Assembly (NCBI GenBank): GCA_049322615.1 | Contig: JBMORX010000010.1 | Coordinates: 89,416-153,415, forward strand | Length of the DNA: 64,000 nt | From: Patescibacteria group bacterium | GTDB taxonomy: Bacteria; Patescibacteriota; Microgenomatia; CAYGWK01 | Direction of reading: 5' to 3' | Part shown: positions 1-41,501 of the stretch, piece after piece | Position numbering within the stretch: the stretch's first letter is position 1 | How the letters are laid out: each line of letters starts with the position of its first letter | Position numbers and translations under genes: made by a program | Notes under the pieces: model-generated | Told to the model about the DNA's origin: nothing | What the model saw: the letters and a program-made list of their open reading frames with translations, nothing else | Database searches by the model: none

Positions 1-3000
1 AGTACCTCCTGTACCAAAGGCTAAACTTCCAGAAGATAGGATTTCGTGCCTGCCAACAGCGACAGTCTCAATTTCGAAGTCCAAGGTTTCAGCACCCAGA
101 CTATTCTGTAGCCGCAAGGGATATTTGGAAGGACTTCCAGCCCCAGGGTCATCAACATTCAGCTTAAAACTTCCCGGCCCCGTCGTCCCGATGCCGACGT
201 TGCCTACCGTATTTACCGTCAAGGCCGGTGTCCAGGCATTAACTCCTGATTTGTAGTCTAGAGTTAAAAGTCCAGCATTTCTTGGTCTGACTGCTCCTCC
301 CGAAGCAAGATATAAATTCCCAGAAACCGAGGCATCTCCGGAGACATCAAGTTTAGCTAAAGGAGAAGTTGTCCCAATTCCAATCTGACTGCCGGTTTCG
401 TAGATTATCGAGTCGGTGAGGGTCGTTGAACCTGACCATTTCGGAATGTAATTTTGCGTTCCGGTTCCCGAAAGAGAGGAGGAAGTGCCCATGACAATCC
501 AGGAAGTTCCATTACAGTAGTACATCTTATCATCTGTGCCGTCATAGTATTGTTTGCCTTTATTTGAGGCGTTACAGGTCCCGGCATAGGCGGGAGCATT
601 GGGTCCAAAACCTAAAGTCCCTGAAATGGTGGCGTTACCGGCAATATCTAGTTTTTGGCTTGGAGAGGTCGTCCCGATGCCGACGTTGCCACTTTTGTCT
701 ACGACGCTTAACACGCCCCCATCGCTATTCTGCCATTGGGTAAGGTCTCCTGTCTGACCTGAAGTTCCTTTAATAATTAATGGTATAGATGCGGCACCAA
801 CTGCACTATCGGCGGTAATTATTGCTGCGTTAGGAAGAAAAGCCTTTCTGCTGCTGTAGGTTAAAACAGGATTTCCATCACTCACTGAGAGAAATCCACT
901 AGATGCATAAATTCCACCACCATTAAAGTAGCCAGTGCCCGCAACTTCCAATTTGTAGGTAGGCCCCGTCGTCCCGATGCCGATATTACCCGCCGAAGTG
1001 ACCACGAAGGCGGGCGTTGCCGTGCCTCCGCCAACGGAATTGCCAATCTGGAGAGAACCATTGTCATACAAATTAATCAAATGAGCCGTGCCACTGCCTC
1101 TGAATGTTAGATTTCCCGAGGCGGAGGCACTCCCGGCAATATCCAAGGTGGCCAATGGTGAAGTTGTTCCAATCCCAATCTGGGAACCGGTTTCGTAAAG
1201 AATCGAATCGGTTAAAGTGCTAGAGGTTGACCATTTGGGAATGTAGTTTTGTGTTCCCGAACCCGAGACCCCACTTGCTCCTGAAGCGACTGCCTTCCAA
1301 GAAGAACCATTACAATAGTAGTATTCGTCGGCAGCATTATCATAGTACATCTTTCCTTCAGCCGCAGCATTACAGGTGCCGGCATAAGCCTGAACTTGGG
1401 GACCTAAAGATAAAGTTCCGGAAATAGTGGCGTCTTCTGCCAAAGTCAGGTCATTGAGAATATAGGTATTATGAGCGACAATCCCATTAGCAACAAAATT
1501 ATGGGTTCCCTCAACCTCAATATCATAGACCTGCTCCTCGCCAACATACTCAATCGAGGCAATTTTCGCCCATTTGACTCGGCTGCCAATTCCTCCACCT
1601 CGGAGGAGCCCCTTCGGGTCACCATCCGAGGTGTCTGCTGTGGCAATTTCCATTCCCGGACGAAGATAGATGACCTTTGTCCACTCGGCGTTGACAAAAG
1701 AATTTTCTTCTGATAGATTATTCTTAATGAGAGGGGTTGATCCAATTTGGCTGTCAATAGTATCAGACCTATTTGTTAACTTGTCTGCCGGTTGGTTTGG
1801 AGTGGTACTTATCGTTCCTAATTTTGCTAAAGAGAAGGGAAGAAGAAAATTGTTGGTCTTGACAACCGATGTATTACTTGGTATATTTTCCTTAGGTGTG
1901 GCATTTGTTTTAAGAAAATTATTATGAGCTCCAAAGACAAAATTGATATTCTCGATGTTAACGCCAGAGCCGCTATTGCTTTTGGTTTGGCCGTAATCGC
2001 TTTGCTCTTGCTTTATATTGCTTTCCTTAAGTAAATCTTGCCAATTTCTCACTAAATATGGGTGATTTCCGGTTGTCCTTATTTGTCTTCCGTCTTCAGT
2101 CGTCAGTCTATAGACTGGTTTGACCCCCATATCCAACAATCCCTTGATTTTGGCCGGCTCAATTTTGCCAGTTTTTTCGTTTAAAGAAAGAACAAGTTCT
2201 CCACCTTTAATATCCTTGATCTGGACGAAGGAGATATTAGGTGATTTTTCTTTTTTGTTTTCGCTCTTAGTATCATAGTCTCTTAGTATCTTAGTATCTT
2301 CTGTTGCCACGATTGGTAAAAGACTGTCGCCAGTAACACACTGTCCCTCAACATGGAGTTTTTGGGCAGGACTCGTCGTCCCGATGCCGACGTTGCCGGT
2401 ATTGATCCAGGAATTGTTACCAGATGTACCAGTGAGTTTTACTAAAGCCGAGGAGGTAGCCGTTGCTCCAAGCAAAACATCATCAGTGATATTGGTGGGG
2501 GAGAGTGCTTGGGCATTTCTTTGCCAATAGCCCGAGGTTCCGGAAGAAGGAGAGTAGATGTTATTGGCATACAAAGCATTCCAATACAAAGATGAAGAAC
2601 CAAGGTTTCTTGTTCCTGTTGCTTCGGGAGTAATATCTCCAGCTACCTGGAGAGCTGATCCTGGATTAGTTAAGCCTATTCCCACATTACCAGAGCTGTT
2701 AACAAACAATCCTGTCGTCCCTGTGGCACCCCGTAGCCAGGCAGTTCCAGCAATCTCTAACTTAGCGCCTGGCGAAGTGGTGCCGATGCCGACGTTGCCG
2801 CTGCTTAATACTAAACTGTCAGACGTGGCGCTGGAATTGATTCTGAATGGATAAGCTCCAGACTGTTGGTTTTTGAAAGCCAGTCCATAGACAGGATTAT
2901 CTGTAGAAATAATCCTGAAATCTACATTAGGGTCTCTCATCAATTCTAAATAGTTATCAGTGCCGTTGCCATTGACTCTTAGGTTGCCTGTTATATCTAG

Positions 3001-6000
3001 TTTTTCACTTGGTGCCGTCGTCCCAATTCCCACATTCCCTAAATTATTAACCGTCAGAGCCGGTGTCCAGGCATTGACTCCGGATTTGTAGTCAAGAGTT
3101 AAAAGTCCAGCATTTCTTGGTCTGACTGCTCCTCCCGAAGCAAGATACAGATTTCCAGAAACTGAAGCATCTCCAGAAACATCAAGTTTAGCTAAAGGCG
3201 AGGTGGTCCCAATTCCAATCTGTCCGCCTGTTTCATAAATTATGGAATCGGTTAAAGATGAAGAAGTACTCCATTTGGGAAGGTAGTTTTGTGTTCCCGA
3301 ACCAGAAACCCCACTTGCTCCTGAAGCCACTGCCTTCCAAGAAGAACCATCACAATAGTAGTATTCATCTTGGGCATTGTCATAGTACATTTTCCCTTCA
3401 GAGGAAGCATCACAGGTTCCCGCATAGGCCTGAACTTGGGGTCCTAGAGCTAAAGTCCCAGAAATAGTGGCGTCTTCTGCCAAAGTCAGGTCATTGGCAA
3501 TATAGGTATTGTGAGCCACAATCCCGTTGGCAACAAAGTTGGCGGTATTGGCAATCTGAAGATCATAGACATGTTTTTTACCAGCAGGCTTGATAGAGAC
3601 AATTTTCTCCCACTTGACCCCGCTATATTCCTTAGCATTCGCCTTTTTAATACTATTCGTATACGGCTCATGCTGCGGATTTACGGGGTCTGCGCCCTGT
3701 ACCGAGAAGGGAACTTGGTGGTGGGGCTTGACATCACCTAATTTACTTGTGGTAGAATGATTATCGATGGGAGAGTTAAAAGGAGAACCCAAAGTATATT
3801 CGGAATTTTTCACTAACGGAGCAGTCGCTTGGCTTTCAGCTGGGGTAATTGCGCCCTTATTTGCCAGAACATTAGGAATGAAGGAGGTAATTGCTTCTTT
3901 GATTTCTATTTCTTCTTGTATATTGTTTTTAAAATTAGCCTCTGATTTTAGCAAGGAGGGTCGATGATTGCTGATAATATTTTGATTGCCTACAGTATTG
4001 GAGTGATTATGAGTAGTATTATAATTATTTATGCCTACTTTCGCTTGAAAAAGTGAGGAATTATGAGTATTGAGACTATTGTTTATATCTTGGCGATTAT
4101 TTTCGGGGTGATTGCTTTCTATATTGCCTTCTTCAAGGTGCGTTAAGTTGGCAACCGCTATTTCTTCCCTTTCTTTTAAGAAAATAACTTTCTTCCACCC
4201 ATCAGGCGTTAGGTACGGGTGATTTCCGGTGGTTTCGATCCTTTTGCCTGATTCGGTTTTTAACTCATAAACTTCCTGAATGCCTTTGTCCAGAGTTTTT
4301 TCCACTTTCTGCCAGGCAAATTCTCCAGTATTTTCGTTTAAGGACAAAACTCTGTCTCCAGGTTTAACATCCTTTATTTGTTTATTTGACATTTGACATT
4401 TGACATTTGACATTTGACATTGTGCTACAGGCACTAAGCTATCCTCGGCCACACATTCTCCTGCTACATGGAGTTTTTTGGAAGGCCCCGTCGTCCCGAT
4501 GCCGACGTTGCCGGTATTGATCCAGGAATTGTTACCAGATGTACCAGTGAGTTTTACTAAAGCCGAGGAGGTAGCCGTTGCTCCAAGCAAAACATCATCA
4601 GTGATATTGGTGGGGGAGAGTGCTTGGGCATTTCTTTGCCAATAGCCCGAGGTTCCGGAAGAAGGAGAGTAGATGTTATTGGCATACAAAGCATTCCAAT
4701 ACAAAGATGAAGAACCCAGGTTTCTTGTCCCCGTTGCCTCGGGAGTAATATCTCCAGCTACCTGTAATTTTGAACCAGGACTTGTCGTCCCGATGCCGAC
4801 GTTGCCGCTAATATACGTGTCCCCGTTACCTAAGATTGAAAGTCCTTTCCCAGTTGTATAATCTGAAAGTGTTACTGCATTATGAGTTGCATCACCTTCA
4901 CCCTTAATAATCCATTCTCCATAAGCAGCAGGCCCGATGAAATAATTATCCGAATCAGAGTGGCGAAAATAATCTACATATAGACTGCTCCAGTGACTTG
5001 TAGACAGACCCAAATGTCGGTTGGCGCCAGAAGGAAGGATATGACCTGCTGCTTGGATACTACCCAAAACATCCAGCTTTTGACCCGGATTCGTCGTCCC
5101 GATGCCGACATAACCTTGTTCGGTCATTACCATTCCCGTTGTCCAGGCATCGGCTCCAGATTTATAGGCAAGTTGGAGTGGTCCGTAGGCAGGTCTAATG
5201 GTTTGTCCTTGACCAATGGTTAGGGTTCCAGACATTGAAGCATTGCCGGTAGTTCCTTCAAAATAGAGTTTGGCAGAAGAAGTGGCGGTTCCCCCAATGG
5301 CGACTGATTCGTAAGTGTTGTTGGGATAAATAACTCCACTGGTCTTTGTCCAATATCCTGAAGTTCCACTCGAGCCGCCATAGATATTATTGACATAAAG
5401 ATTATTCCAGTAAAGTGAAGTAGAACCTAAATCGTAAGTGTTTCCAGAGGAGGGAATGAGATTTGAGGCGACGTTGGCGTTTAAAGTTAAGTTTCCGGCT
5501 AAGGTTAAGGCGTTAAGGTTACCAGTGCCAGAGGAATTGATATAATAGGTGGTTCCGCCGCCAACGCTGATTCCCGCTGATGAGACAATATAAGACGCTG
5601 ATTGTTCGCCGATATCCAAAGAAACACCGCCAGCGCCGGTAATATCGCCGCCGGAAACGGTAATATCACCAGTAAAATAAGAACCAGTGGTATTGGCCCG
5701 AAGAATACCGGCGGCTGAGGCATTGCCGCTATAGTCAACTGTAAACTTAGGAGAAGGCGTCGAGCCGGATTCAAGTTTTAAAAGATTTAAATTGGTATTA
5801 TTGTTGGCTACCGAGCCATATAAAAGAGTATTTGCTTCTCGACCGCCTGATGAGCCGAGATTAGCATCGGTGGCGCTTATCACATTTCCCGTCCCGCCTG
5901 ACAAAGTTAGGTTTAGCACTCCGGAGCCATCGGGTGCTATGGCAATATTGCCGTTGGTGCCGGTATCGGTCACAATCGAGAGCGCCTGACCTCTAATTTG

Positions 6001-6843
6001 AAAAGTGCCTGAAGTTGACCAAATCTTGGGCGAGGCAGAAGCGATAATTAAATTACCTGCCGGATTAATGGCCGGGACAGTTCGGACCGTCGCCCCCATG
6101 GTCGCCGTCGGCTCGGCATTGGTAGCTGAAGCCAGAGGAAATCCTTGCAACGTTTCCGCGTTTAAGGCATAACCGACAGTGGCGATTTGAATTCTTGGAG
6201 TGGCTTCGGAGTCTGAACCAACGGTTATCCCAAGCCAGACCGAGGCGTTTTCCGAAAAAACCGAAGAGGCAATCGCCCCTCCGCAATCAGAGCCCAAAAT
6301 GGTGTTAAAAATTCCATCCTCATCGGGGTCAATTGAGCAGGTGCCCGAATCCCAAAGAGTATTCCCGCCAGAGGAGGCATCATAAAGTCTAAATCTCATG
6401 TTGGTGGCGGTCGTAATCGGAGTATTTGCCGAGTCAGTCAGCCTGCCCTGAAAAGAAAGATAGCGGTTGGGGACAACCGGGGCGGCCGGATAGGCAAGTT
6501 TTTCCGGAGCCTTTTGGATAAACTGCTGGTAAATGCCAAAGCCTAAAGCCGCCAGAAAGATGATTAAGATTAGAAAGTTTAAATAAGTGAAGTAGGGAAG
6601 AGCACGGTAGGCGCGAAGCGGAAGCTTCGCTTTAGAAATTAGTAATTTGTAATTAGTAATTAGAGAAGCCTTTTGGATAAAAGGATTCTCTTTAAGGTAT
6701 CCTTCTCTCACTGCCCAGGAAAAGAACTTTCGCAGCGAGGATTCTTTTCTTTTAAGGCTTTTGGCAGAGGCCCCCCGCATTGCCAGGTATTGGCGGAAAG
6801 TTTTTAGGGTATTTTTATCTATTTTTTGCCAAAAATTAGTCAT
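1..6843 (-). CDS. Giant surface protein (>2,280 aa), partial: the C-terminus lies beyond the window start. Reading from its N-terminus, the domains are a phage-integrase N-terminal SAM-like (core-binding) domain, a transmembrane helix, and a long extracellular region of tail-fibre-like GNVGIGTTSP repeats. It carries two Hint/intein insertions.
   Basis: Start ATG at 6843..6841 overlaps the TGA of the upstream gene (ATGA). I translated the minus strand from 6843 to about 6430 (MTNFWQKIDKNTLKTFRQYLAMRGASAKSLKRKESSLRKFFSWAVREGYLKENPF..., then the TM helix YFTYLNFLILIIFLAALGFGIY), and 4500..660 and 420..1 continuously without stops. The recurring GGCAACGTCGGCATCGGGACGAC (GNVGIGTT) codons at 204, 690, 2397, 4512 and 5115 are all in the same frame relative to 6843. 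The ORF track misses it, probably because no stop lies inside the window. Confidence 0.78.
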   Translation of the reverse strand, partial: MTNFWQKIDKNTLKTFRQYLAMRGASAKSLKRKESSLRKFFSWAVREGYLKENPFIQKASLITNYKLLISKAKLPLRAYRALPYFTYLNFLILIIFLAALGFGIYQQFIQKAPEKLAYPAAPVVPNRYLSFQGRLTDSANTPITTATNMRFRLYDASSGGNTLWDSGTCSIDPDEDGIFNTILGSDCGGAIASSVFSENASVWLGITVGSDSEATPRIQIATVGYALNAETLQGFPLASATNAEPTATMGATVRTVPAINPAGNLIIASASPKIWSTSGTFQIRGQALSIVTDTGTNGNIAIAPDGSGVLNLTLSGGTGNVISATDANLGSSGGREANTLLYGSVANNNTNLNLLKLESGSTPSPKFTVDYSGNASAAGILRANTTGSYFTGDITVSGGDITGAGGVSLDIGEQSASYIVSSAGISVGGGTTYYINSSGTGNLNALTLAGNLTLNANVASNLIPSSGNTYDLGSTSLYWNNLYVNNIYGGSSGTSGYWTKTSGVIYPNNTYESVAIGGTATSSAKLYFEGTTGNASMSGTLTIGQGQTIRPAYGPLQLAYKSGADAWTTGMVMTEQGYVGIGTTNPGQKLDVLGSIQAAGHILPSGANRHLGLSTSHWSSLYVDYFRHSDSDNYFIGPAAYGEWIIKGEGDATHNAVTLSDYTTGKGLSILGNGDTYISGNVGIGTTSPGSKLQVAGDITPEATGTRNLGSSSLYWNALYANNIYSPSSGTSGYWQRNAQALSPTNITDDVLLGATATSSALVKLTGTSGNNSWINTGNVGIGTTGPSKKLHVAGECVAEDSLVPVAQCQMSNVKCQMSNKQIKDVKPGDRVLSLNENTGEFAWQKVEKTLDKGIQEVYELKTESGKRIETTGNHPYLTPDGWKKVIFLKEREEIAVANLTHLEEGNIESNHPENNRQDINNSLNTHNSSLFQAKVGINNYNTTHNHSNTVGNQNIISNHRPSLLKSEANFKNNIQEEIEIKEAITSFIPNVLANKGAITPAESQATAPLVKNSEYTLGSPFNSPIDNHSTTSKLGDVKPHHQVPFSVQGADPVNPQHEPYTNSIKKANAKEYSGVKWEKIVSIKPAGKKHVYDLQIANTANFVANGIVAHNTYIANDLTLAEDATISGTLALGPQVQAYAGTCDASSEGKMYYDNAQDEYYYCDGSSWKAVASGASGVSGSGTQNYLPKWSTSSSLTDSIIYETGGQIGIGTTSPLAKLDVSGDASVSGNLYLASGGAVRPRNAGLLTLDYKSGVNAWTPALTVNNLGNVGIGTTAPSEKLDITGNLRVNGNGTDNYLELMRDPNVDFRIISTDNPVYGLAFKNQQSGAYPFRINSSATSDSLVLSSGNVGIGTTSPGAKLEIAGTAWLRGATGTTGLFVNSSGNVGIGLTNPGSALQVAGDITPEATGTRNLGSSSLYWNALYANNIYSPSSGTSGYWQRNAQALSPTNITDDVLLGATATSSALVKLTGTSGNNSWINTGNVGIGTTSPAQKLHVEGQCVTGDSLLPIVATEDTKILRDYDTKSENKKEKSPNISFVQIKDIKGGELVLSLNEKTGKIEPAKIKGLLDMGVKPVYRLTTEDGRQIRTTGNHPYLVRNWQDLLKESNIKQEQSDYGQTKSNSGSGVNIENINFVFGAHNNFLKTNATPKENIPSNTSVVKTNNFLLPFSLAKLGTISTTPNQPADKLTNRSDTIDSQIGSTPLIKNNLSEENSFVNAEWTKVIYLRPGMEIATADTSDGDPKGLLRGGGIGSRVKWAKIASIEYVGEEQVYDIEVEGTHNFVANGIVAHNTYILNDLTLAEDATISGTLSLGPQVQAYAGTCNAAAEGKMYYDNAADEYYYCNGSSWKAVASGASGVSGSGTQNYIPKWSTSSTLTDSILYETGSQIGIGTTSPLATLDIAGSASASGNLTFRGSGTAHLINLYDNGSLQIGNSVGGGTATPAFVVTSAGNIGIGTTGPTYKLEVAGTGYFNGGGIYASSGFLSVSDGNPVLTYSSRKAFLPNAAIITADSAVGAASIPLIIKGTSGQTGDLTQWQNSDGGVLSVVDKSGNVGIGTTSPSQKLDIAGNATISGTLGFGPNAPAYAGTCNASNKGKQYYDGTDDKMYYCNGTSWIVMGTSSSLSGTGTQNYIPKWSGSTTLTDSIIYETGSQIGIGTTSPLAKLDVSGDASVSGNLYLASGGAVRPRNAGLLTLDYKSGVNAWTPALTVNTVGNVGIGTTGPGSFKLNVDDPGAGSPSKYPLRLQNSLGAETLDFEIETVAVGRHEILSSGSLAFGTGGT
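1468..2340 (-). other. Intein / Hint-domain insertion 1 (291 aa) within the giant protein. It runs from Cys1 (codon 2340..2338) to the terminal Asn of VAHN (codon 1470..1468), with Thr at +1.
   Basis: Translation reads ...NTGNVGIGTTSPAQKLHVEGQ|CVTGDSLLPIVATEDTKILRD...TTGNHPYLV...VYDIEVEGTHNFVANGIVAHN|TYILNDLTLAEDATISGTL. Textbook intein blocks are present: A (C-x-x-x-D-S-L), B (TTGNHPY) and F/G (NFVANGIVAHN), followed by T. The central linker has no LAGLIDADG or HNH motif. Confidence 0.75.
3508..4455 (-). other. Intein / Hint-domain insertion 2 (316 aa), at the homologous site of the duplicated module. It runs from Cys1 (codon 4455..4453) to Asn (codon 3510..3508), with Thr at +1.
   Basis: Translation reads ...GIGTTGPSKKLHVAGE|CVAEDSLVPVAQCQMSNVKCQMSNVKCQMSNKQ...TTGNHPYLT...HVYDLQIANTANFVANGIVAHN|TYIANDLTLAEDATISGTL. 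The central region is N/S/H-rich and low-complexity, with no endonuclease motifs. Confidence 0.75.
4387..4421. repeat. Perfect 5x TGACATT heptanucleotide tandem repeat inside intein 2 of the giant gene. It encodes the QMSNVKC repeats.
   Basis: Sequence at 4387-4421 is tgacatt x5. Seven is not a multiple of three, so a +/-1 unit change shifts the reading frame. Confidence 0.9.
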
Positions 6844-7490
6844 TTCTTCCTTTCTCGAAATTCGAGCCTTTTTTTAAAAAGATTTTCCGAATAGCCGCCT
6901 TCTTCGATAAATTTTCGTTCAAGAGAGCGGATCATTTGGTCTAAAAGATAATTTTCTTTAGAAATAAGAGTAATCATAAGGTTGGCGAAACTCTCGGGAG
7001 AGCCAGTCCAATAAGACCAATTAGTCAAATTAGACTCATTGGCAGAGACGCGGAGAGAGCGGATCTTTAAAACCCGGGGGTCGTTTTTCTCCCAAAGCGT
7101 AAGCCTCCTAAATCTTAAGAAATCCCGATAGTCTTCTAAAAGTTCTCCATAACTTGCCCGAGCCACCCCAGTAAGTTTTATGTTCATCTTTAGGCTTTTT
7201 TCTAGCGAGGCTTCGACGATATTTTGTTTTCCCGAGCGGTCGGCTTGGGCCATTTGCTCAACCGTCCGGCGGTATTTTGGTTCTGAAAGATATTTTTGGC
7301 AGAACTGGTGGTTAAGACTGGAGATAACCACTGCCTGTTGATAAACAATCAGGCTTTCATAACCCCCAGGCTTTGAGTTAGACTTATTTGACTTATTGGT
7401 CCAATTGGTCATATAATTAAAGTGCGGGCCACCAAAAAGCGGCAAATTTTTGGTCCCCCCAAATTTTTGTGCAGCCCTTGGGGCCCGCAC
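6840..7490 (-). CDS. Four-helix-bundle family protein with a C-terminal suffix (216 aa). It is one of three paralogs of this type.
   Basis: The ORF contains TVEQMAQADRSGKQNIVEA...YGELLEDYRDFLRFRRLTLWEKNDPRV... and ends EGGYSENLFKKRLEFRERKK. This matches the ORFs at 23619..24104 and 30651..31241 (both ending ENLFKKRL). Recognition as the CPR-expanded four-helix-bundle (S23 IVS-like) family is from memory. Confidence 0.55.
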   Translation of the reverse strand: MRAPRAAQKFGGTKNLPLFGGPHFNYMTNWTNKSNKSNSKPGGYESLIVYQQAVVISSLNHQFCQKYLSEPKYRRTVEQMAQADRSGKQNIVEASLEKSLKMNIKLTGVARASYGELLEDYRDFLRFRRLTLWEKNDPRVLKIRSLRVSANESNLTNWSYWTGSPESFANLMITLISKENYLLDQMIRSLERKFIEEGGYSENLFKKRLEFRERKK

Positions 7491-7494
7491 CCTT

Positions 7495-7986
7495 TTAAGT
7501 TGCTATCTCGGCCCAAGTTAAGAACGCTCTTATATCAGAAAGATAGTTTTTGATAGTGTTAGAACTAGTCTTTTCAGCCTCCAGATGCTTTCTAAACTCT
7601 TCAAGAATTTTTTCTTCTCCCGTTATTTTATTGCTAGATTGCTTAATTGCTACATTGCTTAATTGCTTGGTGGGATTTTCCGAGATCCATGCTTGGGAAA
7701 GACAAAATTTGCCAAAGGTTCGCAGAGTCGAAAGCCGACGATTGACGGTTGAGAGGGGAAGGGAATTGGCTAAAAGAAAACTTTTGTAACCCAAGATGAA
7801 TTCCTCCTTAAGGTAAAGCCTCATCAACTGGGGTTCATCGTCGTTGACCGGAAGATTCCGACTTCTCAAAGTTAATTCTAACCAGCCAAGAAAGTGGTTT
7901 AAATCAGAAAGATAATTTCTGACGGTTATCGAAGAGAAACCTTGAAGTTTAAGATAAGTTTTAAAAGAATTGGGCAGGCTCGACAT
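7495..7986 (-). CDS. Protein made of two tandem phage-integrase N-terminal SAM-like (core-binding) domains with no catalytic domain (163 aa).
   Basis: Two repeats of the XerC/D N-terminal pattern: NSFKTYLKLQGFSSITVRNYLSDLNHFLGWLEL and EEFRKHLEAEKTSSNTIKNYLSDIRAFLTWAEIAT. No R..HxxR..Y catalytic region follows. Confidence 0.5.
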   Translation of the reverse strand: MSSLPNSFKTYLKLQGFSSITVRNYLSDLNHFLGWLELTLRSRNLPVNDDEPQLMRLYLKEEFILGYKSFLLANSLPLSTVNRRLSTLRTFGKFCLSQAWISENPTKQLSNVAIKQSSNKITGEEKILEEFRKHLEAEKTSSNTIKNYLSDIRAFLTWAEIAT

Positions 7987-8689
7987 AAATTTAAAATTTA
8001 AAATGTAAAAAGTAAAATTGCACTTAAGGCAAAAATCAAAATAGCAGTTAACATTTCGGCAATTTGATAGCCAATTCCATTCGTGTCAATTCGTGTTGGC
8101 GACGCAACATTGTACGCCATCCAAGGTCTTAGGCGGTCTGCGCGTCGCTCATTCGTGTTAATTCGTGTTAATTTCCGCAAAAACCTCCAAAGACCCTTAC
8201 TAGGCTTAAGATTATACAGATTATACATACATTTACTACTATAAAAGAATTCTTGACTGGTTGTCAAGAGGCATTTTGATGTATTTAGAATAGGTCAATT
8301 TTTGCCCAAAATTAACATTTTCATAAAGTTTTCACTGGATAAAAATGGTACATCTGTCCCTAACTTAATATATCATAATATAACTTTGGGGAGGGAGAAG
8401 TTGATGATATTATTTGATTGATTTAATCTAAAATTCTAAATTCGAAATCCTAAATTCTAAACCCTCCTTCGCTTACGCTTCGGAAGGGCAAGCAAATTAT
8501 TTCCTTAAAAAAAATTGCCGTGCCACTCCGAAGCCCAAAGGGCGTAGGGTGGTTTAGAATTTAGATATTAGTGCTTAAAATTTTTCTACTATTTTTATCA
8601 CTTCGCTGCGCTCAGTGCTAGAGAAAAAACAGTAAAGATTTGCTCGGATTTATAGGCTCATTTAGCAAATCCGAATGCATCCCGCCTTC

Positions 8690-8750
8690 GCAAAAGCTTC
8701 GGCGGGCAAGCCGAATTTAAATAATCCGAATTAATCCGAATAGATTGACA
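8690..8750. repeat. CCGAAT-rich repeat element, copy 1. It contains ATCCGAATGCATCC ... CCGAATTTAAATAATCCGAATTAATCCGAATA and overlaps a putative promoter.
   Basis: A near-identical copy lies in inverted orientation at 60795-60870. A ttgaca at 8737-8742, a tatcat and a GAGGA RBS sit upstream of the ATG at 8788. Confidence 0.5.
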
Positions 8751-8787
8751 AGCGAATACCCTAAAGCATATCATAAAATAGAGGAAA

Positions 8788-9207
8788 ATGATCAAGAGGA
8801 TTTTAACCATTATTATTTTAGTTCTTCTAATCTTTGGGCTGATAATTGTCGTTTATCTGGTCCGTCAGCAAACAAAACTGCCTGGTCGAGCGACTACCCC
8901 CGGAGTTTTATCTTTAGAAAACTCTTATCTTTTTGCCTCGCCTCTGGTTGCTCGGGTTGGGGGTGGGGAAAAAATAACCATTTCCGCTTTTGTTTTGTCC
9001 GATCAGGGTTTGGGAATTCCTGGCGAGAAAGTGGTTTTATATTCTGCTCCCGCCCTTCAGGCTCTGACGATTCGGGATGAGACCGACTCTCGTGGTTTGG
9101 CGGTTTTTGAAATCACCTCGCAAACTTCCGGCTCATTTACTCTTTGGGCTACTGTGGCTGGAAAGGGGCAGATAAAACAACAAGTGACGGTTACATTTAC
9201 ACCGTAA
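8788..9207 (+). CDS. Small membrane-anchored protein with a beta-rich (Ig-like?) ectodomain, hypothetical.
   Basis: 139-aa ORF with an N-terminal TM helix (ILTIIILVLLIFGLIIVVYLV) and a GAGGA RBS. The overlapping ORF at 8745..9080 is in another frame and lacks an RBS. Confidence 0.45.
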   Translation: MIKRILTIIILVLLIFGLIIVVYLVRQQTKLPGRATTPGVLSLENSYLFASPLVARVGGGEKITISAFVLSDQGLGIPGEKVVLYSAPALQALTIRDETDSRGLAVFEITSQTSGSFTLWATVAGKGQIKQQVTVTFTP

Positions 9208-9218
9208 ACTAATCTTAA

Positions 9219-9611
9219 ATGTCAAATCTCAAAACTCAAAACCAAAACTTAAATCTTAAATCTAATTTAAAATATAGAGCATACAAATTTTCTTTAATGG
9301 TCATAAAATTTGTTAGTGGTTTTCCCGAAAAGAAGATTTACTGGATAATAGGTGATCAGCTTCTAAGAGCAGCCACTAGCATCGGAGCGAACATAATTGA
9401 GGCTCAAGCCTCGAGCTCAAAAAGAGAATTTATAAAGTATTACGAAATTGCTCTTAAGTCTGCCAATGAAACAAAATACTGGCTTTGCCTGTTAAGAGAT
9501 GGCAATTTAGTTAACAAAGAGGAGGTAGGCAGGATTTTAAAGGAGGCAGAAGAGATAAGTAATATGCTCGGCTCTAGCCTTTTAACCCTTAAGGGAAAGA
9601 AAAAGTTTTGA
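9219..9611 (+). CDS. Four-helix-bundle protein (classic short form, 130 aa).
   Basis: Contains QLLRAATSIGANIIEAQASSSKREFIKYYEIALKSANETKYWLCLLRD, which matches the S23 IVS / four-helix-bundle family pattern from memory. Confidence 0.65.
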   Translation: MSNLKTQNQNLNLKSNLKYRAYKFSLMVIKFVSGFPEKKIYWIIGDQLLRAATSIGANIIEAQASSSKREFIKYYEIALKSANETKYWLCLLRDGNLVNKEEVGRILKEAEEISNMLGSSLLTLKGKKKF

Positions 9612-14432: not shown

Positions 14433-15452
14433 TTAGTATCTCCACATTCTCTTTTTAATCAATAAAACTATCGAGACAGCAATAAGAATGGCTAAAGATA
14501 ACTTTCCTGGTAGCGCCAAAAAAGAAGTGACGGCTGAGAGAGTCTGACTCCCTCCATCTTCTTCTAAACTAAATTCGACCTTGGCGCGGTAAGGACCTAA
14601 TAAGAAAGAAGTGGGAAGGGCGAAGTGCCGTGCGTCGCCAGAGGCTATGCCGGCGGCGCGAGAAGTGGGAGAAGCACTAGGAGTGGCAACTTGGATTTGT
14701 CTAATTGAACCCACCAAAACATTATCAGGAATAAGTTCTTGTTCATATTTTTGACCTAAAAGCCCTTCGATTTTAATTTTTCCAAAGGGTTTCCAAAATG
14801 CTCTTCCCGTATTTTTAACTCTCAAGAGAAACTCCGGTTTATCAAAAGAATCGATGATGGGAAGTGCGAAGTGTGAAGTGCGAAGTGTGAATTCGACGAT
14901 TTCGCCCCTTTTAACTGGCTTGCCCGAGCGGGAAACGGTCAGTAAGATGTTTGAGCCAATGACGCCTGCTCCCGAAGTAGTTGTGCCACCACCTCTTTCT
15001 TTTGGCTTTGTGGAGAAAAGAAAAGTAAAATAATAATCATCCTCACGAGTATTCTCGGGAATTTTTATTCGCAGGATTATTTGTTTTGACTCGCCTGATC
15101 TTAAAACAAAAGGTTGACCTAAAGCCAGATCGGCATTCTCAAAAGAAAACCAGCCTTTCGGAGGTCCGACCTCCTCGGAGGTCGGACCTCTTAAGGAAAC
15201 GTTTCCCAGTTCATCTCCCGGCTCAAAAGGCAAAATTTGGGTGTTAATAATGGTCTCGTCCCCAGAATTCTCAAGTTGATAGGCTTGAATGATTGATTTT
15301 CCAGGCATCATCATGACCTCTAATAAAGGGGGGTAGATGGAAAGGGAAAAGGTTTGGGCCCGCGCCTCTGGCGAATGAAAAAATAAAAATGAAAATATAA
15401 AAATTACAACTAAAAATCTTAAAATTTTTAATTTTACATTGTAATTTTTCAT
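14433..15452 (-). CDS. C-terminally anchored surface protein B2 (339 aa), paralog of B1.
   Basis: Signal peptide MKNYNVKLKILRFLVVIFIFSFLFFHSPEARAQ, then LSIYPPLLEVMMMPGKSIIQAYQLENSGDETI (the same motif as B1), and a C-terminal TM LSLAILIAVSIVLLIKKRMWRY. Confidence 0.6.
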   Translation of the reverse strand: MKNYNVKLKILRFLVVIFIFSFLFFHSPEARAQTFSLSIYPPLLEVMMMPGKSIIQAYQLENSGDETIINTQILPFEPGDELGNVSLRGPTSEEVGPPKGWFSFENADLALGQPFVLRSGESKQIILRIKIPENTREDDYYFTFLFSTKPKERGGGTTTSGAGVIGSNILLTVSRSGKPVKRGEIVEFTLRTSHFALPIIDSFDKPEFLLRVKNTGRAFWKPFGKIKIEGLLGQKYEQELIPDNVLVGSIRQIQVATPSASPTSRAAGIASGDARHFALPTSFLLGPYRAKVEFSLEEDGGSQTLSAVTSFLALPGKLSLAILIAVSIVLLIKKRMWRY

Positions 15453-15473
15453 TTTTAACTTTTAACTTTTAAT

Positions 15474-16268
15474 TTAGTAGGTTGGTGTTGCCACAAAAAT
15501 AATATAGTTCTCATAATCTCCCGCCGCCTGGCTTCCCGAGATATTGACTTTATAAGTAACCGTTCCCACCCTATTTTTGCCCACCTGGGAACTTGACATG
15601 ACTATGCTTGGGTCCTCTGAGGCTGCCAAAGAGGGAAAAGGACGAAAATAAGTAGAGTTGACAAAAGTCGCCGGAATATCTTGTCCTTGCATATTATAGC
15701 CAAAACCATACTTAGTATTATCTGTCCAAGGCTGGGCCGTGGTTTCATCGCAGGTTTGGGCTCCACCATTACAGGTAGTATCGGAAATAGTGGCTGTTCC
15801 TGCCAGGGTTTTTAAGGTATCACTTTCTCGGGCGGTCACCTGATAGCCGCCGGCGCCACCGGCGGAAACAGTTAAAGTATTGGTTTGGGTTGAGGGTGTC
15901 CCTGGAGTTAAAGTGCCAAAATCAATAGATAAATCAGAGATTGTAAACCGGAAAGGGATGATGGACTTAAGATACCAAAAACCGCTTCTTACCTTGTATC
16001 CAGTTGAAGTGTAGAGTCCGGGAGCAGTCTGCCCGCCGGTGACCCCAAGTTTATAACTTGAGGAAGTGGGTAGCCCGGCGCCCATATTGACATTGCCCAT
16101 CTGGATTTTATAAGAATCGGAAGATAAGTTCTCGGCGCGAGCGCCTCGAGTAATAAGCAAATAAGCAGAGCTTGTTGCTACGCAATAAGCAAATAAGCAA
16201 ATAAGCAAATAAGCAAATAATTTGAAATTTGAAATTTGAAATTGATTTGACATTTGCTTATTTGACAT
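15474..16268 (-). CDS. Secreted surface protein A2 (264 aa), paralog of A1, with the C-terminus SGSQAAGDYENYIIFVATPTY.
   Basis: The N-terminus MSNKQMSNQFQISNFKLFAYLLICLFAYCVATSSAYLLITRGARA is encoded largely by tandem 7/8-nt repeats. The body is Thr/Gly-rich. Confidence 0.6.
   Translation of the reverse strand: MSNKQMSNQFQISNFKLFAYLLICLFAYCVATSSAYLLITRGARAENLSSDSYKIQMGNVNMGAGLPTSSSYKLGVTGGQTAPGLYTSTGYKVRSGFWYLKSIIPFRFTISDLSIDFGTLTPGTPSTQTNTLTVSAGGAGGYQVTARESDTLKTLAGTATISDTTCNGGAQTCDETTAQPWTDNTKYGFGYNMQGQDIPATFVNSTYFRPFPSLAASEDPSIVMSSSQVGKNRVGTVTYKVNISGSQAAGDYENYIIFVATPTY
16221..16241. repeat. 3x TTTGAAA heptamer tract in the A2 5' coding region. It is flanked by 4x AATAAGCA octamers (16170-16210) and GACATTT heptamers (16244-16280) around the start codon.
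   Basis: Read directly at 16170-16280. Confidence 0.85.
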
Positions 16269-30076: not shown

Positions 30077-30434
30077 AGCAACGTATTATATCAATCTAAT
30101 ACGAAAAAATCTAAAAATTATTATTTTCTATATAATGGAAATGCGTTATTATTATTTAGGGATTAGTGATAGAATAGGTATAATTATCAATAAAAAAATA
30201 GCGATTGCGAAGCAATCGCAAAATCGCGCGCGCAAAAAATAATTGCGAAGAATTAGCATTCTTCGCAAAACGTGTCGGCTCGAACTTCTTTTTATCTAAT
30301 CGGCAGCTCTCGGCAGAATATAAGCAGAGCTTGATTTTTCGCTTTGCTCAAAATTAAAAAGGGCTTTGCGGCGCTCCGTGCGGGCGGCGGCGCACGGAGC
30401 GCCTCCACCTCGACGGACTCTTTTTCTCTTTTTG

Positions 30435-30602
30435 TCGGAGAGCCGGGACTCGAACCCGGGACCTCCCCGTACAAATTTCGGACTTCTGGTCGGAGCGGTG
30501 AGAATTGGACTCACTACCTCTCGGTCCCGAACCGAGCGTTCTGCCGATGAACTACGCTCCGAAATTGTTACGGGGCAGCGCTACCAACTGCGCTACCCTC
30601 CG
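30435..30602 (-). tRNA. Composite tRNA locus. The outer tRNA has a canonical D arm (GCGCAGTTGGTAGCGC), T arm (CCGGGTTCGAGTCCCGG) and acceptor pairing (CGGAGGG/CTCTCCG). Its anticodon arm is replaced by a 17-bp extended stem capped by a ~75-nt tRNA-shaped insert.
   Basis: RC of 30435-30602 reads cggagggtagcgcagttggtagcgctgccccgtaacaatttcgg[agcgtag...ctccgacca]gaagtccgaaatttgtacggggaggtcccgggttcgagtcccggctctccga. The long stem CCCCGTAACAATTTCGG/CCGAAATTTGTACGGGG is nearly perfect. A possible mature anticodon loop TTTGTAC would give UGU (Thr) if the insert is removed. Confidence 0.55.
30487..30561 (-). tRNA. Inner tRNA-like element with a CGG anticodon (Pro-like), an encoded CCA, and an atypical T-loop (TCCAATT).
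   Basis: cggagcg-ta-gttc-atcggca-gaac-g-ctcgg-ttcggga-ccgag-aggta-gtgag-tccaatt-ctcac-cgctccg-a-cca. All four stems are perfect, but T54-Psi55 would read U-C, so it may be an intron or pseudo-tRNA rather than a functional tRNA. Confidence 0.4.
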
Positions 30603-30650
30603 AAATTATTATTATTTTAGCCCTTTTCGTGGTAAAATACAAATAAGAAC

Positions 30651-31241
30651 ATGCTGCCTAAATACAAATACCTTTTGACTTACCGTTATGCCGAAATTAT
30701 TCAGGACGGAACAAACGATTTTTGTCTAAGACACTTAAGTGACTTAAGAAACTTAAGAATTCCTACGAGGCGGACTGTCGAGCAGATGACGCAAAGCGGC
30801 CGGAGTCTGAAACAAAATATTATTGAGGCAGTAAGCGATAGTCTGACTTCGAAAAAAACCGAGATTAAACTTTTGGGAGTAGCCTACGGTTCGGTTGAAG
30901 AATTGATTGCCGATTTTGAAGATTTTTTAAGACAAAGAAACCTGCAAATTTGGCCGAAAACAGATAAGCGAGTCTTAATCTTTCGTCGACTTGGGTATCG
31001 CTTAAGTAACCTAAGTAACCTAAGTAACCTAAGTAACCTAAGTAACTTAGGAAACTTAAAAGAAAAACTAGTTTTACCGGAAAATCCCGAAGAAGCGGCC
31101 AATTTACTTTTGACTTTGTGTCACATGGAGAGTTATCTTTTAAGTTGTCAAATTAAAGCGGCGGAAGAAAAATTTATCAAAGAAGGCGGCTACACGGAAA
31201 ACTTGTTTAAAAAGCGCCTTGAAAGTAGAATACTTAAGTAA
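30651..31241 (+). CDS. Four-helix-bundle protein with suffix (196 aa). It contains an in-frame tandem repeat.
   Basis: RRTVEQMTQSGRSLKQNIIEA...EGGYTENLFKKRLESRILK. An internal 5x 12-nt repeat AAGTAACCTAAG (31002-31056) encodes LSNLSNLSNLSNLGNL. Confidence 0.55.
   Translation: MLPKYKYLLTYRYAEIIQDGTNDFCLRHLSDLRNLRIPTRRTVEQMTQSGRSLKQNIIEAVSDSLTSKKTEIKLLGVAYGSVEELIADFEDFLRQRNLQIWPKTDKRVLIFRRLGYRLSNLSNLSNLSNLSNLGNLKEKLVLPENPEEAANLLLTLCHMESYLLSCQIKAAEEKFIKEGGYTENLFKKRLESRILK
31002..31056. repeat. 5x 12-nt tandem repeat (CTTAAGTAACCT-type) inside the four-helix-bundle gene. Further CTTAAG-containing repeats lie at 30740-30770 and 31232-31265.
   Basis: cttaagtaacctaagtaacctaagtaacctaagtaacctaagtaacttagga. 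Confidence 0.85.
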
Positions 31242-38220: not shown

Positions 38221-38321
38221 ATTAATTCACCCCCTTTCATTAAATAAATTCAAAAATTAAATATCAAAAATCAAAATTACAGATTAAAATTTAAAAATTT
38301 TTGCATTTTGAATTGTCATTT

Positions 38322-38831
38322 TTAATTTTTCATTTTACATTTTGCATTTAAGACAAGAATTAATTTTTTGGTATTTGCTCCGAGGACATTTACAAATCTT
38401 TCTGAAGGAAACCTAAGCAGGGAAAGAAGATTAACTATTAATTCTTGTCTGCTGGGCAGGCTTCCTAATTTTTCCACTTCTTCCTTGGTTAGTGCTCTAT
38501 CTTCCCAAATACCAGATTTGAATGTTGGCAGACCTTGAGTTTTGGCAAAATCAAAAACACTTTTAATTGGCGCAAGCTCATCTTGATAAGCCAAAACAAG
38601 CGCGGTTGGACCAGAAAGTTCCAGTTCTGGTAATTTTTGTTCTTTTAAAGCAAGCTTAAGGAGGGTATTTTTGACCACCAAAAATTGCCCCCCAGCCTTT
38701 TTAACCAGCGTCCGAAGCTGGCTTATTTGGGGAACGGTAAGACCACGATAGTCTGTCAAAACAATACTTTTGGCTTGTTTTAAGCCTTCGGCTAAATTGG
38801 CGACAGCAAAAATTTTTTCCTGTTTCTTCAT
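38322..38831 (-). CDS. rplJ: Ribosomal protein L10.
   Basis: MKKQEKIFAVANLAEGLKQAKSIVLTDYRGLTVPQISQLRTLVKKAGGQFLVVKNTL. Confidence 0.9.
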   Translation of the reverse strand: MKKQEKIFAVANLAEGLKQAKSIVLTDYRGLTVPQISQLRTLVKKAGGQFLVVKNTLLKLALKEQKLPELELSGPTALVLAYQDELAPIKSVFDFAKTQGLPTFKSGIWEDRALTKEEVEKLGSLPSRQELIVNLLSLLRFPSERFVNVLGANTKKLILVLNAKCKMKN

Positions 38832-40106: not shown

Positions 40107-40994
40107 TTATAGATTATCAATGGCTACCTTAACTGCCGGTCCCATTGTTCCCTTAATAACCGCTTTTTTGATATTTTTTGTTCCCACTGCCGAAAGATAA
40201 GTTTTTAGATTCTCTTCCAGTTCTTTTTCAGGCTGGGAAATTTTACCAAAGACAGCGTGGACTAAAGGAGCATTTTGTTCTGTTTTAAAAGAGACTGATG
40301 TCTTTTGAAATCTTTTGATGGCTTCCTCTGGCTTATCGGTGATGGTGCCATTTTTTGGATTGGGCATCAAGCCTTTGGGACCAAGTAATTTGGCAAATTG
40401 GACTAATTTGGGCATAAAAGCTGGAGTCGCCAACAATATATCAAAATCTATCTTCCCCACCTCAATCTTCTTTAATGTCTCCTCGTTGGCAATTTCAATC
40501 CTTCTTGCCTTGCCGGCAAAATAGGGGAGAGAAACATCGCCTGAGATTCCGGTTTTTCCGGTGACCAGGTGGAGTTCCGCTGCTCCATCAAAACGAGCGA
40601 AGGAGGTTTCCTTAAGAAGCCTTATTGCTTCGGAAAGGGGGTAGGATTTGCTTGGGTCAATCTTAACTTTAGCGGCGAGATACTTTTTACCTCGGATTTT
40701 GGGTGGCTTGACTTCTTTTAATTTTGCTTCTTTCTGCGTCTCTGCTTGCTTTTGCGTCTCCGCGGTTACGGGTTCGGCCGTGATCGCCACCACTCTTTCG
40801 CCACCCTTTAAGCCAGGAACACGCACTCTCTGAGTGCCCTTTTCCTCTTTCAGGGATTTCTTGTGCTCTTTTTTTGGTTTTCCTTCTTCGCCTAGGATGG
40901 CGACTCTTTTTTTACCCACGTTCCCTCCGGTCAAATTAAAAATTAAAAATGAAAAATTAAAAACGACAAATAAGCAAAGCTTGTTGCTTCGCAA
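40107..40994 (-). CDS. rplA: Ribosomal protein L1. The ORF carries a long N-terminal extension, and the true start is probably downstream, near KIRGKKYLAAKV.
   Basis: ...IRGKKYLAAKVKIDPSKSYPLSEAIRLLKETSFARFDGAAELHLV... matches the L1 N-terminus. The first 22 codons (MRSNKLCLFVVFNF...) are encoded by the recurring AATAAGCAAAGCTTGTTGCTTCGCAT element. Confidence 0.8.
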   Translation of the reverse strand: MRSNKLCLFVVFNFSFLIFNLTGGNVGKKRVAILGEEGKPKKEHKKSLKEEKGTQRVRVPGLKGGERVVAITAEPVTAETQKQAETQKEAKLKEVKPPKIRGKKYLAAKVKIDPSKSYPLSEAIRLLKETSFARFDGAAELHLVTGKTGISGDVSLPYFAGKARRIEIANEETLKKIEVGKIDFDILLATPAFMPKLVQFAKLLGPKGLMPNPKNGTITDKPEEAIKRFQKTSVSFKTEQNAPLVHAVFGKISQPEKELEENLKTYLSAVGTKNIKKAVIKGTMGPAVKVAIDNL

Positions 40995-41078
40995 TAAAAA
41001 TCTTAAAAATTTTTAATTTTACATTGTAATTTTTATTTTTTATTTCGCTAGAAACAAGCTTGCTTATATTTTCATTTT

Positions 41079-41501
41079 TCATTTTATTGTTACTCCCATC
41101 GACCTGGCCGTGCCCTCAACAATCCTTTCGGCTGCCTCCAAATCTTCAGTATTTAAATCTTTCATTTTCTCTTGGGCAATTTTTTGGACTTGTTCTCGCG
41201 TTAGCACTCCAACTTCCTCTCTGCCAGTTGCTCCTGAACCCTTTTCTAAAGCCAAGGTTTTTTTAATCATATCCGCCACTGGCGGAAGCTTGGTAACAAA
41301 AGAAAAAGTTCGATCCTCATAAACCGTAATCACCACGGGAATGATGTTTCCCTTCATTTGGGCAGTTTTTTCGTTGTAGGCTTTGACAAAATCCATAATT
41401 GGCAGTCCATGTGAGCCGAGTGCTGGACCAACCGGCGGCGCCGGAGTGGCTTCACCAGCCGGAAGATTAAGCTTGATGATGGTTTTTACTTTCTTAGGCA
41501 T
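41079..41501 (-). CDS. rplK: Ribosomal protein L11.
   Basis: [46 protein letters not shown]. Confidence 0.95.

Follow-up and report, generated by a model that had tools for sequence, protein, structure and literature searches.

The described departures from the plain transfer RNA (tRNA) gene, as set out in a review of tRNA gene diversity, comprise intron-containing, split, tri-split and permuted genes only (PMC4033280). Here we describe a locus on the minus strand of a 64-kb window (the whole stretch of 64,000 nucleotides (nt) that was analysed, from contig JBMORX010000010.1 of a Patescibacteria group bacterium) in which one tRNA gene lies inside another. From position 30602 to position 30435, a span of 168 nt, a 75-nt tRNA-Pro(CGG) is placed between the two halves of a second tRNA-shaped sequence, hereafter called the shell. 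A nested tRNA-in-tRNA gene is apparently undescribed, and a full-text literature search found no natural example.

The intron of archaeal tRNA-Trp encodes a C/D box RNA. The interrupted tRNA genes of archaea and eukaryotes (bulge-helix-bulge introns, split and permuted genes; PMC4033280) resemble the window locus in that the insert sits in the anticodon region and encodes a functional RNA, and in that the halves pair through the acceptor stem. Unlike them, the window locus is bacterial, has no bulge-helix-bulge, carries a tRNA of the same isoacceptor type as its insert, offers no possible decoder in its outer part and implies no splicing endonuclease. A second comparison is with the group I introns found at position 35/36 of tRNA-Asn and tRNA-Asp in Patescibacteria (PMC13011429), which share the phylum and the affected part of the gene; the break at 35/36 also recurs in the nested loci L038, L019 and L100 described below. 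However, group I tRNA introns are usually at least 200 nt long and contain a ribozyme core, whereas the insert here measures ~100 nt, is a tRNA and has no U before the break.

Intervening sequences (IVSs) in bacterial 23S and 16S ribosomal RNA (rRNA) are removed by RNase III without re-ligation. As in those rRNAs, a native hairpin loop has here been replaced by an extended helix bearing extra RNA, and removal would leave a base-paired, fragmented host; moreover, an open reading frame (ORF) adjoining the window locus belongs to an IVS-associated four-helix-bundle family. The differences are that the host is a tRNA, that the helix is only 12-15 bp long, and that the excised piece is functional while the host fragments are probably waste. 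The engineered Escherichia coli 'tRNA scaffold' (PMC3753655) has an identical topology, with a passenger RNA carried on a stem that replaces the anticodon loop and with processing by tRNA enzymes. In contrast to that construct, the window locus is natural, and its passenger is itself an RNase P substrate that should be cut out rather than accumulate. By analogy, the nested gene would work most like an rRNA-type IVS or the engineered tRNA scaffold.

Two further systems share parts of the layout. In transfer-messenger RNA (tmRNA) the transcript ends close a tRNA-like acceptor/T-arm half, and a long helix takes the place of the anticodon arm and leads to a large insert. The window locus likewise has an acceptor/T-arm top half closed by two ends, a helix replacing the anticodon arm and an insert beyond; unlike tmRNA, it has a Pro-type C1-G72 pair as opposed to the Ala-type G3-U70 and no tag reading frame, and ARAGORN calls no tmRNA. 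The shell T arm gave a weak Rfam match to the tmRNA/tRNA clan, the tmRNA match being a 9.7-bit fragment confined to the T arm. Integrating elements, for their part, leave partial tRNA duplications at their attachment (att) sites. Such remnants place tRNA halves beside a complete tRNA (L018, L052, L069 and L073 are of this class, and the shell halves of L098 are exact copies of its inner tRNA), but they are one-sided, repeat the tRNA's own sequence and are usually accompanied by an island and an integrase, whereas in the window both halves are in register, joined by a helix and different in sequence from the tRNA between them. A direct repeat of the own tRNA was absent from the window locus and present in L098 and in the non-nested L069. 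As for features of miniature inverted-repeat transposable elements, inverted arms are present at the window locus, with no target-site duplication and no other copy in the 64 kb. Because at least one defining feature of each was looked for and found to be absent, the window gene lies outside the group I, bulge-helix-bulge, tmRNA and att-remnant classes.

Anatomy of the nested locus

The sole ARAGORN call at the locus was the inner tRNA-Pro(CGG) at 30487-30561, which ends ...CGCUCCG-A-CCA. The same sequence scored 58.7 bits against the Rfam tRNA family (RF00005; gathering score 29), in agreement with the 75-nt cloverleaf, CGG anticodon and encoded CCA reported in the initial annotation of the window. 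The inner tRNA has the canonical form of an elongator, with stems of 7, 4, 5 and 5 bp, a 7-nt anticodon loop (UUCGGGA) containing U33 and a purine at position 37, and a D-loop (AUCGGCA) that retains GG. Its T-loop, UCCAAUU, departs from the conserved U54-U55-C56 by a C at position 55, confirming the aberrant loop noted earlier, and is one U55C change away from the UUCAAUU/UUCAACU loops of the related loci L135/L136; the deviation is real but small. The inner tRNA is 88% identical to both the stand-alone tRNA-Pro(CGG) of L136 and the inner tRNA of L135 at the syntenic site. Its sequence identifies it as the native, ordinary tRNA-Pro(CGG) of the lineage and the ortholog of the relatives' stand-alone gene, and it is most likely the working decoder of the locus.

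The shell 5' half (30562-30602) reads CGGAGGG-UA-GCGC-AGUUGGUA-GCGC-UG and then continues into the 5' arm of a helix. It contains the 5' strand of an acceptor stem (CGGAGGG, 30596-30602) and, preceded by U8 and A9, a D arm (GCGC/AGUUGGUA/GCGC, 30578-30593). The helix 5' arm, CCCCGUA-AC-AAUUU (30562-30575), is identified by the inverted repeat and by a homologous arm in L130; it abuts the first base of the inner tRNA and doubles as its 5' leader. The shell 3' half, with its trailer and helix arm, spans 30435-30486. Here an unpaired 8-nt trailer, GAAGUCCG (30479-30486), stands between the inner CCA and the helix and, in the structure model, is the likely entry site for 3' processing. It is followed by the helix 3' arm, AAAUU-UG-UACGGGG (30465-30478), at the equivalent position of which L130 has AAUUUUUACGGGG. 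The remainder (30435-30464) supplies the variable loop AGGUC, the T arm CCGGG/UUCGAGU/CCCGG, the acceptor strand CUCUCCG and a discriminator A, with no CCA.

Read from the sequence, the leader-trailer helix is thus the joint between the shell halves. It consists of 15 pairs with a 2x2 AC/UG mismatch, and was recovered by an inverted-repeat search as an 18-nt repeat of 89% complementarity with arms 75 nt apart. Because the last three pairs (CGG/CCG) draw on the first three bases of the inner acceptor stem, the helix beside a folded inner tRNA is one of 7 + 5 bp; the CCG in question (30479-30481) is able to lengthen the helix 3' arm in competition with that stem. The extended stem described initially therefore stands, but its proposed 17 near-perfect pairs reduce to 15 with a mismatch, three of them borrowed. 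The resulting length of 12-15 bp in the window compares with 16-21 bp in the nested loci L098 and L113, a substrate of RNase III needing about two helical turns. Only two copies of a helix arm sequence occur in the 64-kb window, namely the arms themselves. When leader-trailer pairing was scored, the window locus obtained 8 and the other nested loci 8.5-19.5, and most of the 194 scored tRNAs obtained 4-7.

With the inner tRNA removed and the stem capped, the shell was called as a tRNA by ARAGORN, while shuffled shells were called in 0/3000 cases; across deletion constructs, 174 of 224 were called. In a flank-joining test on the 180 tRNAs of all fetched DNA, high counts were confined to the window locus and the other nested ones; dense tRNA arrays gave lower values. 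Since shuffling abolished the calls, most constructs retained them and the flank-joining signal was restricted to nested loci, the resemblance of the shell to a tRNA is not due to chance. Its arms are canonical, the acceptor, D and T stems being fully paired, with the D loop AGUUGGUA and the T loop UUCGAGU, and these results uphold the outer element with acceptor, D and T arms that had been proposed for the minus strand. The acceptor end is Pro-like (C1-G72, A73) and not Thr-like, which marks the shell as a second tRNA-Pro-type framework. Its sequence differs from that of the inner tRNA, for example in the D arm (GCGC vs GUUC) and the T arm (CCGGG vs GUGAG).

The shell has no anticodon loop residues, the helix running on continuously from the position of the 5-bp anticodon stem, and because it has no anticodon loop it cannot decode. 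Assignment of an anticodon was attempted by a deletion scan and abandoned, as Thr, Lys, Gln, Ile, Cys and other identities were obtained depending solely on the end points chosen; no Pro anticodon could be recovered for the shell from the window sequence. The UGU anticodon suggested for a spliced product falls with this result, being one of many such choices and at odds with the Pro-like acceptor. ARAGORN run with an intron search of 0-300 nt still reported the inner tRNA alone. It was the deletion constructs that made the shell visible to the program.

The insert measures ~100 nt, of which 75 nt are tRNA. Rfam searches returned no group I core, Intron_gpI or other ribozyme in the insert at gathering score or at E<=10, and no other Rfam family matched the intervening sequence, in keeping with the earlier remark that it is unlike a group I intron. 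A bulge-helix-bulge motif, which consists of two 3-nt bulges on opposite strands with 4 bp of helix between them, is absent in the window, where the 7-bp and 5-bp helices are separated by a symmetric 2x2 mismatch. Re-pairing into a bulge-helix-bulge was also tried for L113 and L038 and was a misfit, the internal loops being opposed and not staggered bulges. No EndA-type splicing endonuclease or ligase was found among the ORFs examined near the locus.

Recurrence of the layout in relatives and in other genomes

Related loci at the syntenic site (n=10) were obtained through homologues of the neighbouring PEGA-domain protein, and the order WecG-MreB-PEGA-tRNA-Arg(CCT)-tRNA-Pro(CGG) is kept in 10/10 of them. 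In six (L129, L132, L133, L134, L136 and L139) a plain tRNA-Pro lies 0-29 nt past tRNA-Arg, and in L131 a plain tRNA-Pro(CGG) lies ~2.5 kb farther along. The nested arrangement, which the initial annotation had proposed looking for in related genomes, was found in the remaining three, in full in L128 and in part in L135 and L130. L128 has a complete shell that starts 1 nt past tRNA-Arg. In L135 the shell 5' half and the helix are kept, the T arm and 3' acceptor strand are gone and the D-loop holds a large insertion. In L130 the promoter and helix are as in the window, and the shell T arm has been deleted. A 'GGAA' in L128 was considered as a retained half of an anticodon loop and was discarded, its G's belonging to the stem of an extra hairpin.

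L129, L132 and L139 are ~85% identical to L128 over 5.4 kb upstream and have an identical tRNA-Arg, yet bear the plain gene. A 24-nt spacer in these three loci possibly keeps a trace of the shell (CUAUCGUUCAGUG vs CUACGUUCGCACUG). A nested allele was not found in a close relative of L128, the candidate examined, L139, carrying the plain allele. The types of tRNA-Pro(CGG) at the syntenic site diverge sharply between close relatives, and this suggests repeated replacement of the gene at this position. When the window is compared with L130, the tRNAs of shell type and of inner type appear to have changed places, an observation that we do not rely on since L130 has a run of N inside the tRNA.

To survey the layout more widely, a nesting pattern (a tRNA 3' end ...CCGACCA, then a T arm and ...CCGA within 15-45 nt) was scanned against 185,579 species genomes and against metagenomes, giving 81 and 45 hits, respectively; by construction these scans sample only tRNAs ending in CCGACCA. 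The majority arose by chance in G+C-rich genomes or from a tRNA 3' end that is directly repeated, and only hits with a 5' half upstream were retained. Among the genome hits, four loci (L019, L021, L038 and L048) have both an upstream 5' half and a leader-trailer helix. All four are from Patescibacteria, three being so named and L019 being placed there through a 68-71% identical protein held in common with L038.

Together with the metagenomic hits, about six sequence families share the layout, and wherever the source of a hit has a name, it belongs to the Patescibacteria, a group of ultra-small bacteria. The metagenomic locus L113 combines a complete, CCA-encoding shell with a helix of 21 bp, which starts CCCCGU like that of the window. 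In L100, also metagenomic, a tRNA(UAU) lies within a tRNA(UAU), the anticodon loop being broken at 35/36 (CUUA/UAC); apart from position 26, the variable loop and an anticodon stem that has been re-paired, its shell and inner tRNA are identical. The halves of the metagenomic L098 shell match positions 1-38 and 54-76 of its inner tRNA at 100% identity and flank a 21-bp inverted repeat. L098 and L100 show, on their sequences, that nesting can begin as the duplication of a gene into itself. Independent re-assemblies reproduce several loci: L089 is identical to L038 across the nested element, L105 matches L021 at 99.97% and L112 matches L048 at 99.98%.

The insertion point is 35/36 in three families (L038, L019 and L100) and after position 38 in L098, and no loop is left in the window and L021. 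L038 and L019 have a helix in common and so probably derive from one insertion event. Across the loci the shells range from perfect to truncated, and several encode CCA. The collection holds a series of states: some shells are exact duplicates, others have diverged yet are still perfect, others again are truncated, and at the same site there are also plain genes. The series resembles a path along which a tRNA gene is first interrupted, then replaced by the gene inside it and finally cleared away, and such a path bears on the origin of introns and of split tRNA genes. There is also a practical consequence for annotation: standard tRNA finders miss the shell, so that gene counts and 'pseudogene' or 'intron' calls in such genomes can be wrong.

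The scans also returned several arrangements of other kinds. In L088 (1435-1600, minus strand), L125 (1467-1610, plus strand) and L028 (2274-2410, plus strand), a tRNA-Pro(CGG) directly precedes a partial tRNA copy that comprises the 3' two-thirds and has a capped hairpin instead of the anticodon arm, with no convincing 5' half upstream; such loci may be related to the nested layout on one side only, or may be remnants of att type. Past seven tRNA genes in L103 (3862-3923, plus strand) lies a sequence that resembles a tRNA in its acceptor, D and T arms but has no anticodon arm (GGCGCGUAGCUCAGUCGGUAGAGC-CGCAGUGUC-GCGGGUUCGAGUCCCGC-CGCGCCGA). In L069 (7160-7400, plus strand), L018, L023, L032, L052 and L073, a tRNA-Pro is followed by 1-3 direct repeats of its own 3' end. 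Repeats of this kind, found in several phyla, have the signature of integrase att sites and are the main false positives of the pattern.

On the 238-kb contig L087, a 9-kb array (748-9505) contains 36 tRNA/tmRNA genes, including a tmRNA and a call for the selenocysteine tRNA (tRNA-SeC), as well as a partial tRNA-Pro copy followed by the apparent start of another tRNA; L087 is probably a very large phage or mobile element. Viral contigs gave no match for the 3' end of the inner tRNA, and all that the nesting pattern recovered from them were phage genes for a non-nested tRNA-Pro whose variable arm is long. Phage-like tRNA arrays in L084, L092, L109, L116, L119, L137 and L138 (the last two being IMG/VR viral contigs) encode a tRNA-Pro(UGG) of 83-85 nt with a long variable arm (GCCGCAAGGCGC); at 153,613 nt, L138 equals in length the contig from which L116 was taken. 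By its sequence this tRNA has a class II-like shape, which is unusual for proline tRNAs.

Processing, selection and origin of the nested gene

We consider it probable, with some reserve, that the nested locus is a composite tRNA gene in which the inner tRNA is released from a single transcript and the shell is a non-decoding remnant, serving at most as a frame for folding or processing. In this model, a resident tRNA-Pro-type gene, the present shell, would have been interrupted at its anticodon position by a helix together with a complete tRNA-Pro(CGG) cassette. The whole unit would be transcribed as one ~170-nt RNA from its own promoter, and the precursor would fold into two nested cloverleaves. 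RNase P would cleave at C1 of the inner tRNA, with the shell 5' half acting as the leader, and the 3' side would be opened within the 8 unpaired bases and trimmed to the encoded CCA. The products would be tRNA-Pro(CGG), as the only decoder, and two shell halves. Held together by the 7-bp acceptor stem and the 12-bp helix, these halves may persist as a nicked tRNA-like RNA that lacks an anticodon. The suggestion, first made on annotation, of a tRNA gene that landed inside another and of a precursor giving more than one RNA fits such a model, with the inner tRNA as an ortholog of a stand-alone gene and the outer element as a tRNA-Pro framework. In folding calculations the nested double cloverleaf has -63.3 kcal/mol compared with -71.7 kcal/mol for the minimum free energy structure, and the centroid structure already includes the nested helices. 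The gap of 8 kcal/mol is unremarkable for tRNAs, whose tertiary contacts are outside the energy model.

Several points weigh against this account. A leader that is paired up to position -1 is usually unfavourable for bacterial RNase P, although the five helix pairs beside the inner cut are all A-U, as is the inner-proximal part of the helix in L135, L128, L130 and L113. An encoded CCA normally blocks RNase Z. The three tRNA stems of the window shell carry no disrupted pair at all. In L038 and L019, which have the same helix, fully compensated changes are found in the anticodon, T and acceptor stems of the shell. In addition, the shells of L038 and L128 (family Y) are 84-87% identical, with inner tRNAs at 83-85%, while their flanks are unalignable (8-19%) and their helices unrelated (6-16%); a shell conserved to the same degree as the inner tRNA strains the view that it is a mere remnant.

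The conservation of family Y and the compensated changes favour an alternative in which selection maintains the shell as a naturally occurring tRNA scaffold, comparable to the engineered one. It would close the transcript ends, recruit RNase P, 3'-end enzymes or the CCA-adding enzyme, enforce correct folding, or survive as a two-piece tRNA-like RNA with a role of its own. In an alignment of seven intact shells, which was assembled by hand, all 119/119 stem cells are paired, with changes on both sides in 12/17 pairs; the compensated anticodon-stem changes include CACGA/TCGTG, CATCG/CGATG and CTACG/CGTAG. The L100 shell, described above, differs from its inner tRNA at so few places, the re-paired anticodon stem among them, as to point in the same direction, and in L128, where the shell begins 1 nt past tRNA-Arg, an RNase P cut at that point would also free the tRNA-Arg 3' end. 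However, the hand-made alignment tempers the first of these results, and the covariation could predate independent insertions into genes that were once functional. Moreover, shells decay while the inner tRNA is always intact (L135 has lost the T arm and 3' acceptor strand and L130 the T arm, the 3' side is decayed in L112, the D arm is missing in L019 and the D-loops of L105 and L135 have large insertions), and the close relatives of L128 bear a plain gene. A further candidate sign of constraint, the identity of the helix arms of L038 and L019 (17/17 and 14/16), was rejected: because the inner tRNA itself is 88% identical between the two, <=2 changes in 33 nt are not unusual (binomial ~0.2) and the arm identity is no evidence of constraint. 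We regard the scaffold as rather unlikely on balance, although on selection itself there is evidence both ways. If the shell is indeed selected, the locus would also exemplify an insert that RNase P and 3'-end enzymes take out, in place of a ribozyme or a splicing endonuclease. Conceivable, though doubtful, is the broader proposition that Patescibacteria hold an undescribed composite class, with one complete tRNA serving as the intron of another that has the same isoacceptor type, with RNase P and 3' nucleases excising it, and with the shell kept by selection. The shell could then be a two-piece tRNA-like RNA or a processing frame, and shells of the L038 or L100 type could even be rejoined into a second tRNA. 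As for the possibility that the outer halves are unexpressed pseudogene remnants, it appears to be half right: the halves lie inside a predicted transcription unit and in one family are conserved like the inner tRNA.

Full splicing, with excision of the inner tRNA by RNase P and RNase Z and with the shell halves, once trimmed, being ligated to form another functional tRNA, would amount to a tRNA intron of a new type, and this we hold to be very improbable. Elsewhere the two loop halves do rebuild a correct anticodon loop (UUCG/GGU in L038, UUCG/GGA in L019 and, identical to its inner loop, that of L100), the break at 35/36 is the site used by self-splicing group I introns in patescibacterial tRNA-Asn and tRNA-Asp (PMC13011429), and several shells encode CCA. 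However, the window keeps no half of a loop, so that a Pro anticodon cannot be rebuilt, and it has neither a group I core nor a bulge-helix-bulge motif. Cuts at the ends of the inner tRNA would leave the helix strands on the exons. The products of RNase P and RNase Z, with 3'-OH and 5'-P ends, are not substrates of RtcB. Insert positions also vary by family and the shells decay in sister lineages, and the novel intron spliced to a ~73-nt tRNA that had been envisaged for this locus is not supported, given the missing loop, the lack of splicing motifs and the truncated shells.

An origin at the DNA level, in which the helix would have no part to play in the RNA and its arms are the terminal inverted repeats of a small mobile cassette, or att leftovers, that carried in a replacement tRNA and left the shell as the disrupted target, also appears unlikely, though less so than splicing. 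The exact shell copies around the 21-bp inverted repeat of L098 mark a recent duplicative event, a 10-mer on the helix 5' arm of L038 (CCTGCCCGCC) has its complement on the helix 3' arm of L100 (GGCGGGCAGG) although the tRNAs are different, many tRNA-Pro genes in other phyla precede integrase-like direct repeats of their own 3' end, and the sharp differences at the syntenic site imply frequent replacement. Against it, no transposase or integrase adjoins the window copy (the adjoining genes encode a methyltransferase and a four-helix-bundle protein), the arms have no further copy in the 64 kb, no target-site duplication was seen and the window shell halves are not repeats of the inner tRNA. A generic mobile element would not explain why the isoacceptor type of the cargo always matches that of the target, and the retention of the helix where the shell has decayed (L130 and L098) is equally consistent with a role at the RNA level. 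Finally, the window comes from a metagenome-assembled genome (MAG), in which tRNA repeats can be mis-joined, and the run of N in L130 lies inside a tRNA. A chimeric join of two tRNA-Pro genes is nevertheless scarcely credible, as it would not yield symmetric complementary arms around an intact tRNA with the shell halves in register, and the same layout is present in independent assemblies (L038/L089, L021/L105 and L048/L112) and at the syntenic site in L128.

Transcription signals and gene neighbourhood

A consensus promoter scan upstream of the shell found 2 overlapping sites, with 0.5 expected. The promoter-like site (30608-30636) consists of a -35 element UUUACC, a 17-nt spacer and a -10 element AAUAAU (30613-30608), and would place the start of transcription within a few bases of shell C1 (30602). 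A 19-nt block that includes the -35 element is identical in the orthologous locus L130. Downstream, at 30370-30403, there is a 13-bp hairpin of G+C only (GGCGCUCCGUGCG / CGCACGGAGCGCC, loop CCGCCGCC), which begins 32 nt past the shell in a region of ~41% G+C and is followed 9 nt further by a U run. The hairpin is a possible, if uncertain, 3' end of the unit, and a consensus terminator scan does not call it. With these signals the nested locus looks like one transcription unit, from which shell and inner tRNA would be co-transcribed. Small G+C-rich palindromes also break the shell D-loops in L105 and L135.

The neighbouring genes are ordinary chromosomal ones, encoding ArgRS, an M16 peptidase, a sugar transferase, a methyltransferase, a PEGA-domain protein, MreB and WecG. 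The PEGA protein has a 100% identical counterpart in a 'Patescibacteria group bacterium' MAG and a 72% identical one in Candidatus Shapirobacteria. Searches for identical proteins returned no record of the neighbour ORF and placed MreB on a 1.1-kb contig only. At a distance of 48 nt from the nested tRNA there is a divergently transcribed ORF of 196 aa (30651-31241, plus strand), with matches of 56.7 bits to TIGR04258, the four-helix-bundle suffix domain, and of 26 bits to the four-helix-bundle family TIGR02436, a family first found inside 23S rRNA IVSs. This ORF contains a LSNLSNLSNLSNLGNL repeat, and the ORF is missing from the orthologous spacer in L130.

Elsewhere in the window, a tRNA at 47912-47987 (minus strand; Rfam tRNA 54.7 bits) has an 8-nt anticodon loop, CUCUUAAA, for which ARAGORN reports the 4-base anticodon 'ctta'. 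The gene encodes CCA and is preceded by a strong TTGACA/TATAAT promoter; its product may be a tRNA-Lys(CUU) whose loop is expanded, or a reader of quadruplets or frameshifts. No shell was found around this tRNA, and a G+C-rich hairpin adjacent to it lies upstream of its own promoter. Long, A+T-rich imperfect palindromes occur at 15374-15474, 38245-38350, 40933-41085 and 61747-61865. They have a word family in common (AAAAATGAAAAAT / ATTTTTCATTTTT) and may represent a dispersed intergenic repeat family of this genome.

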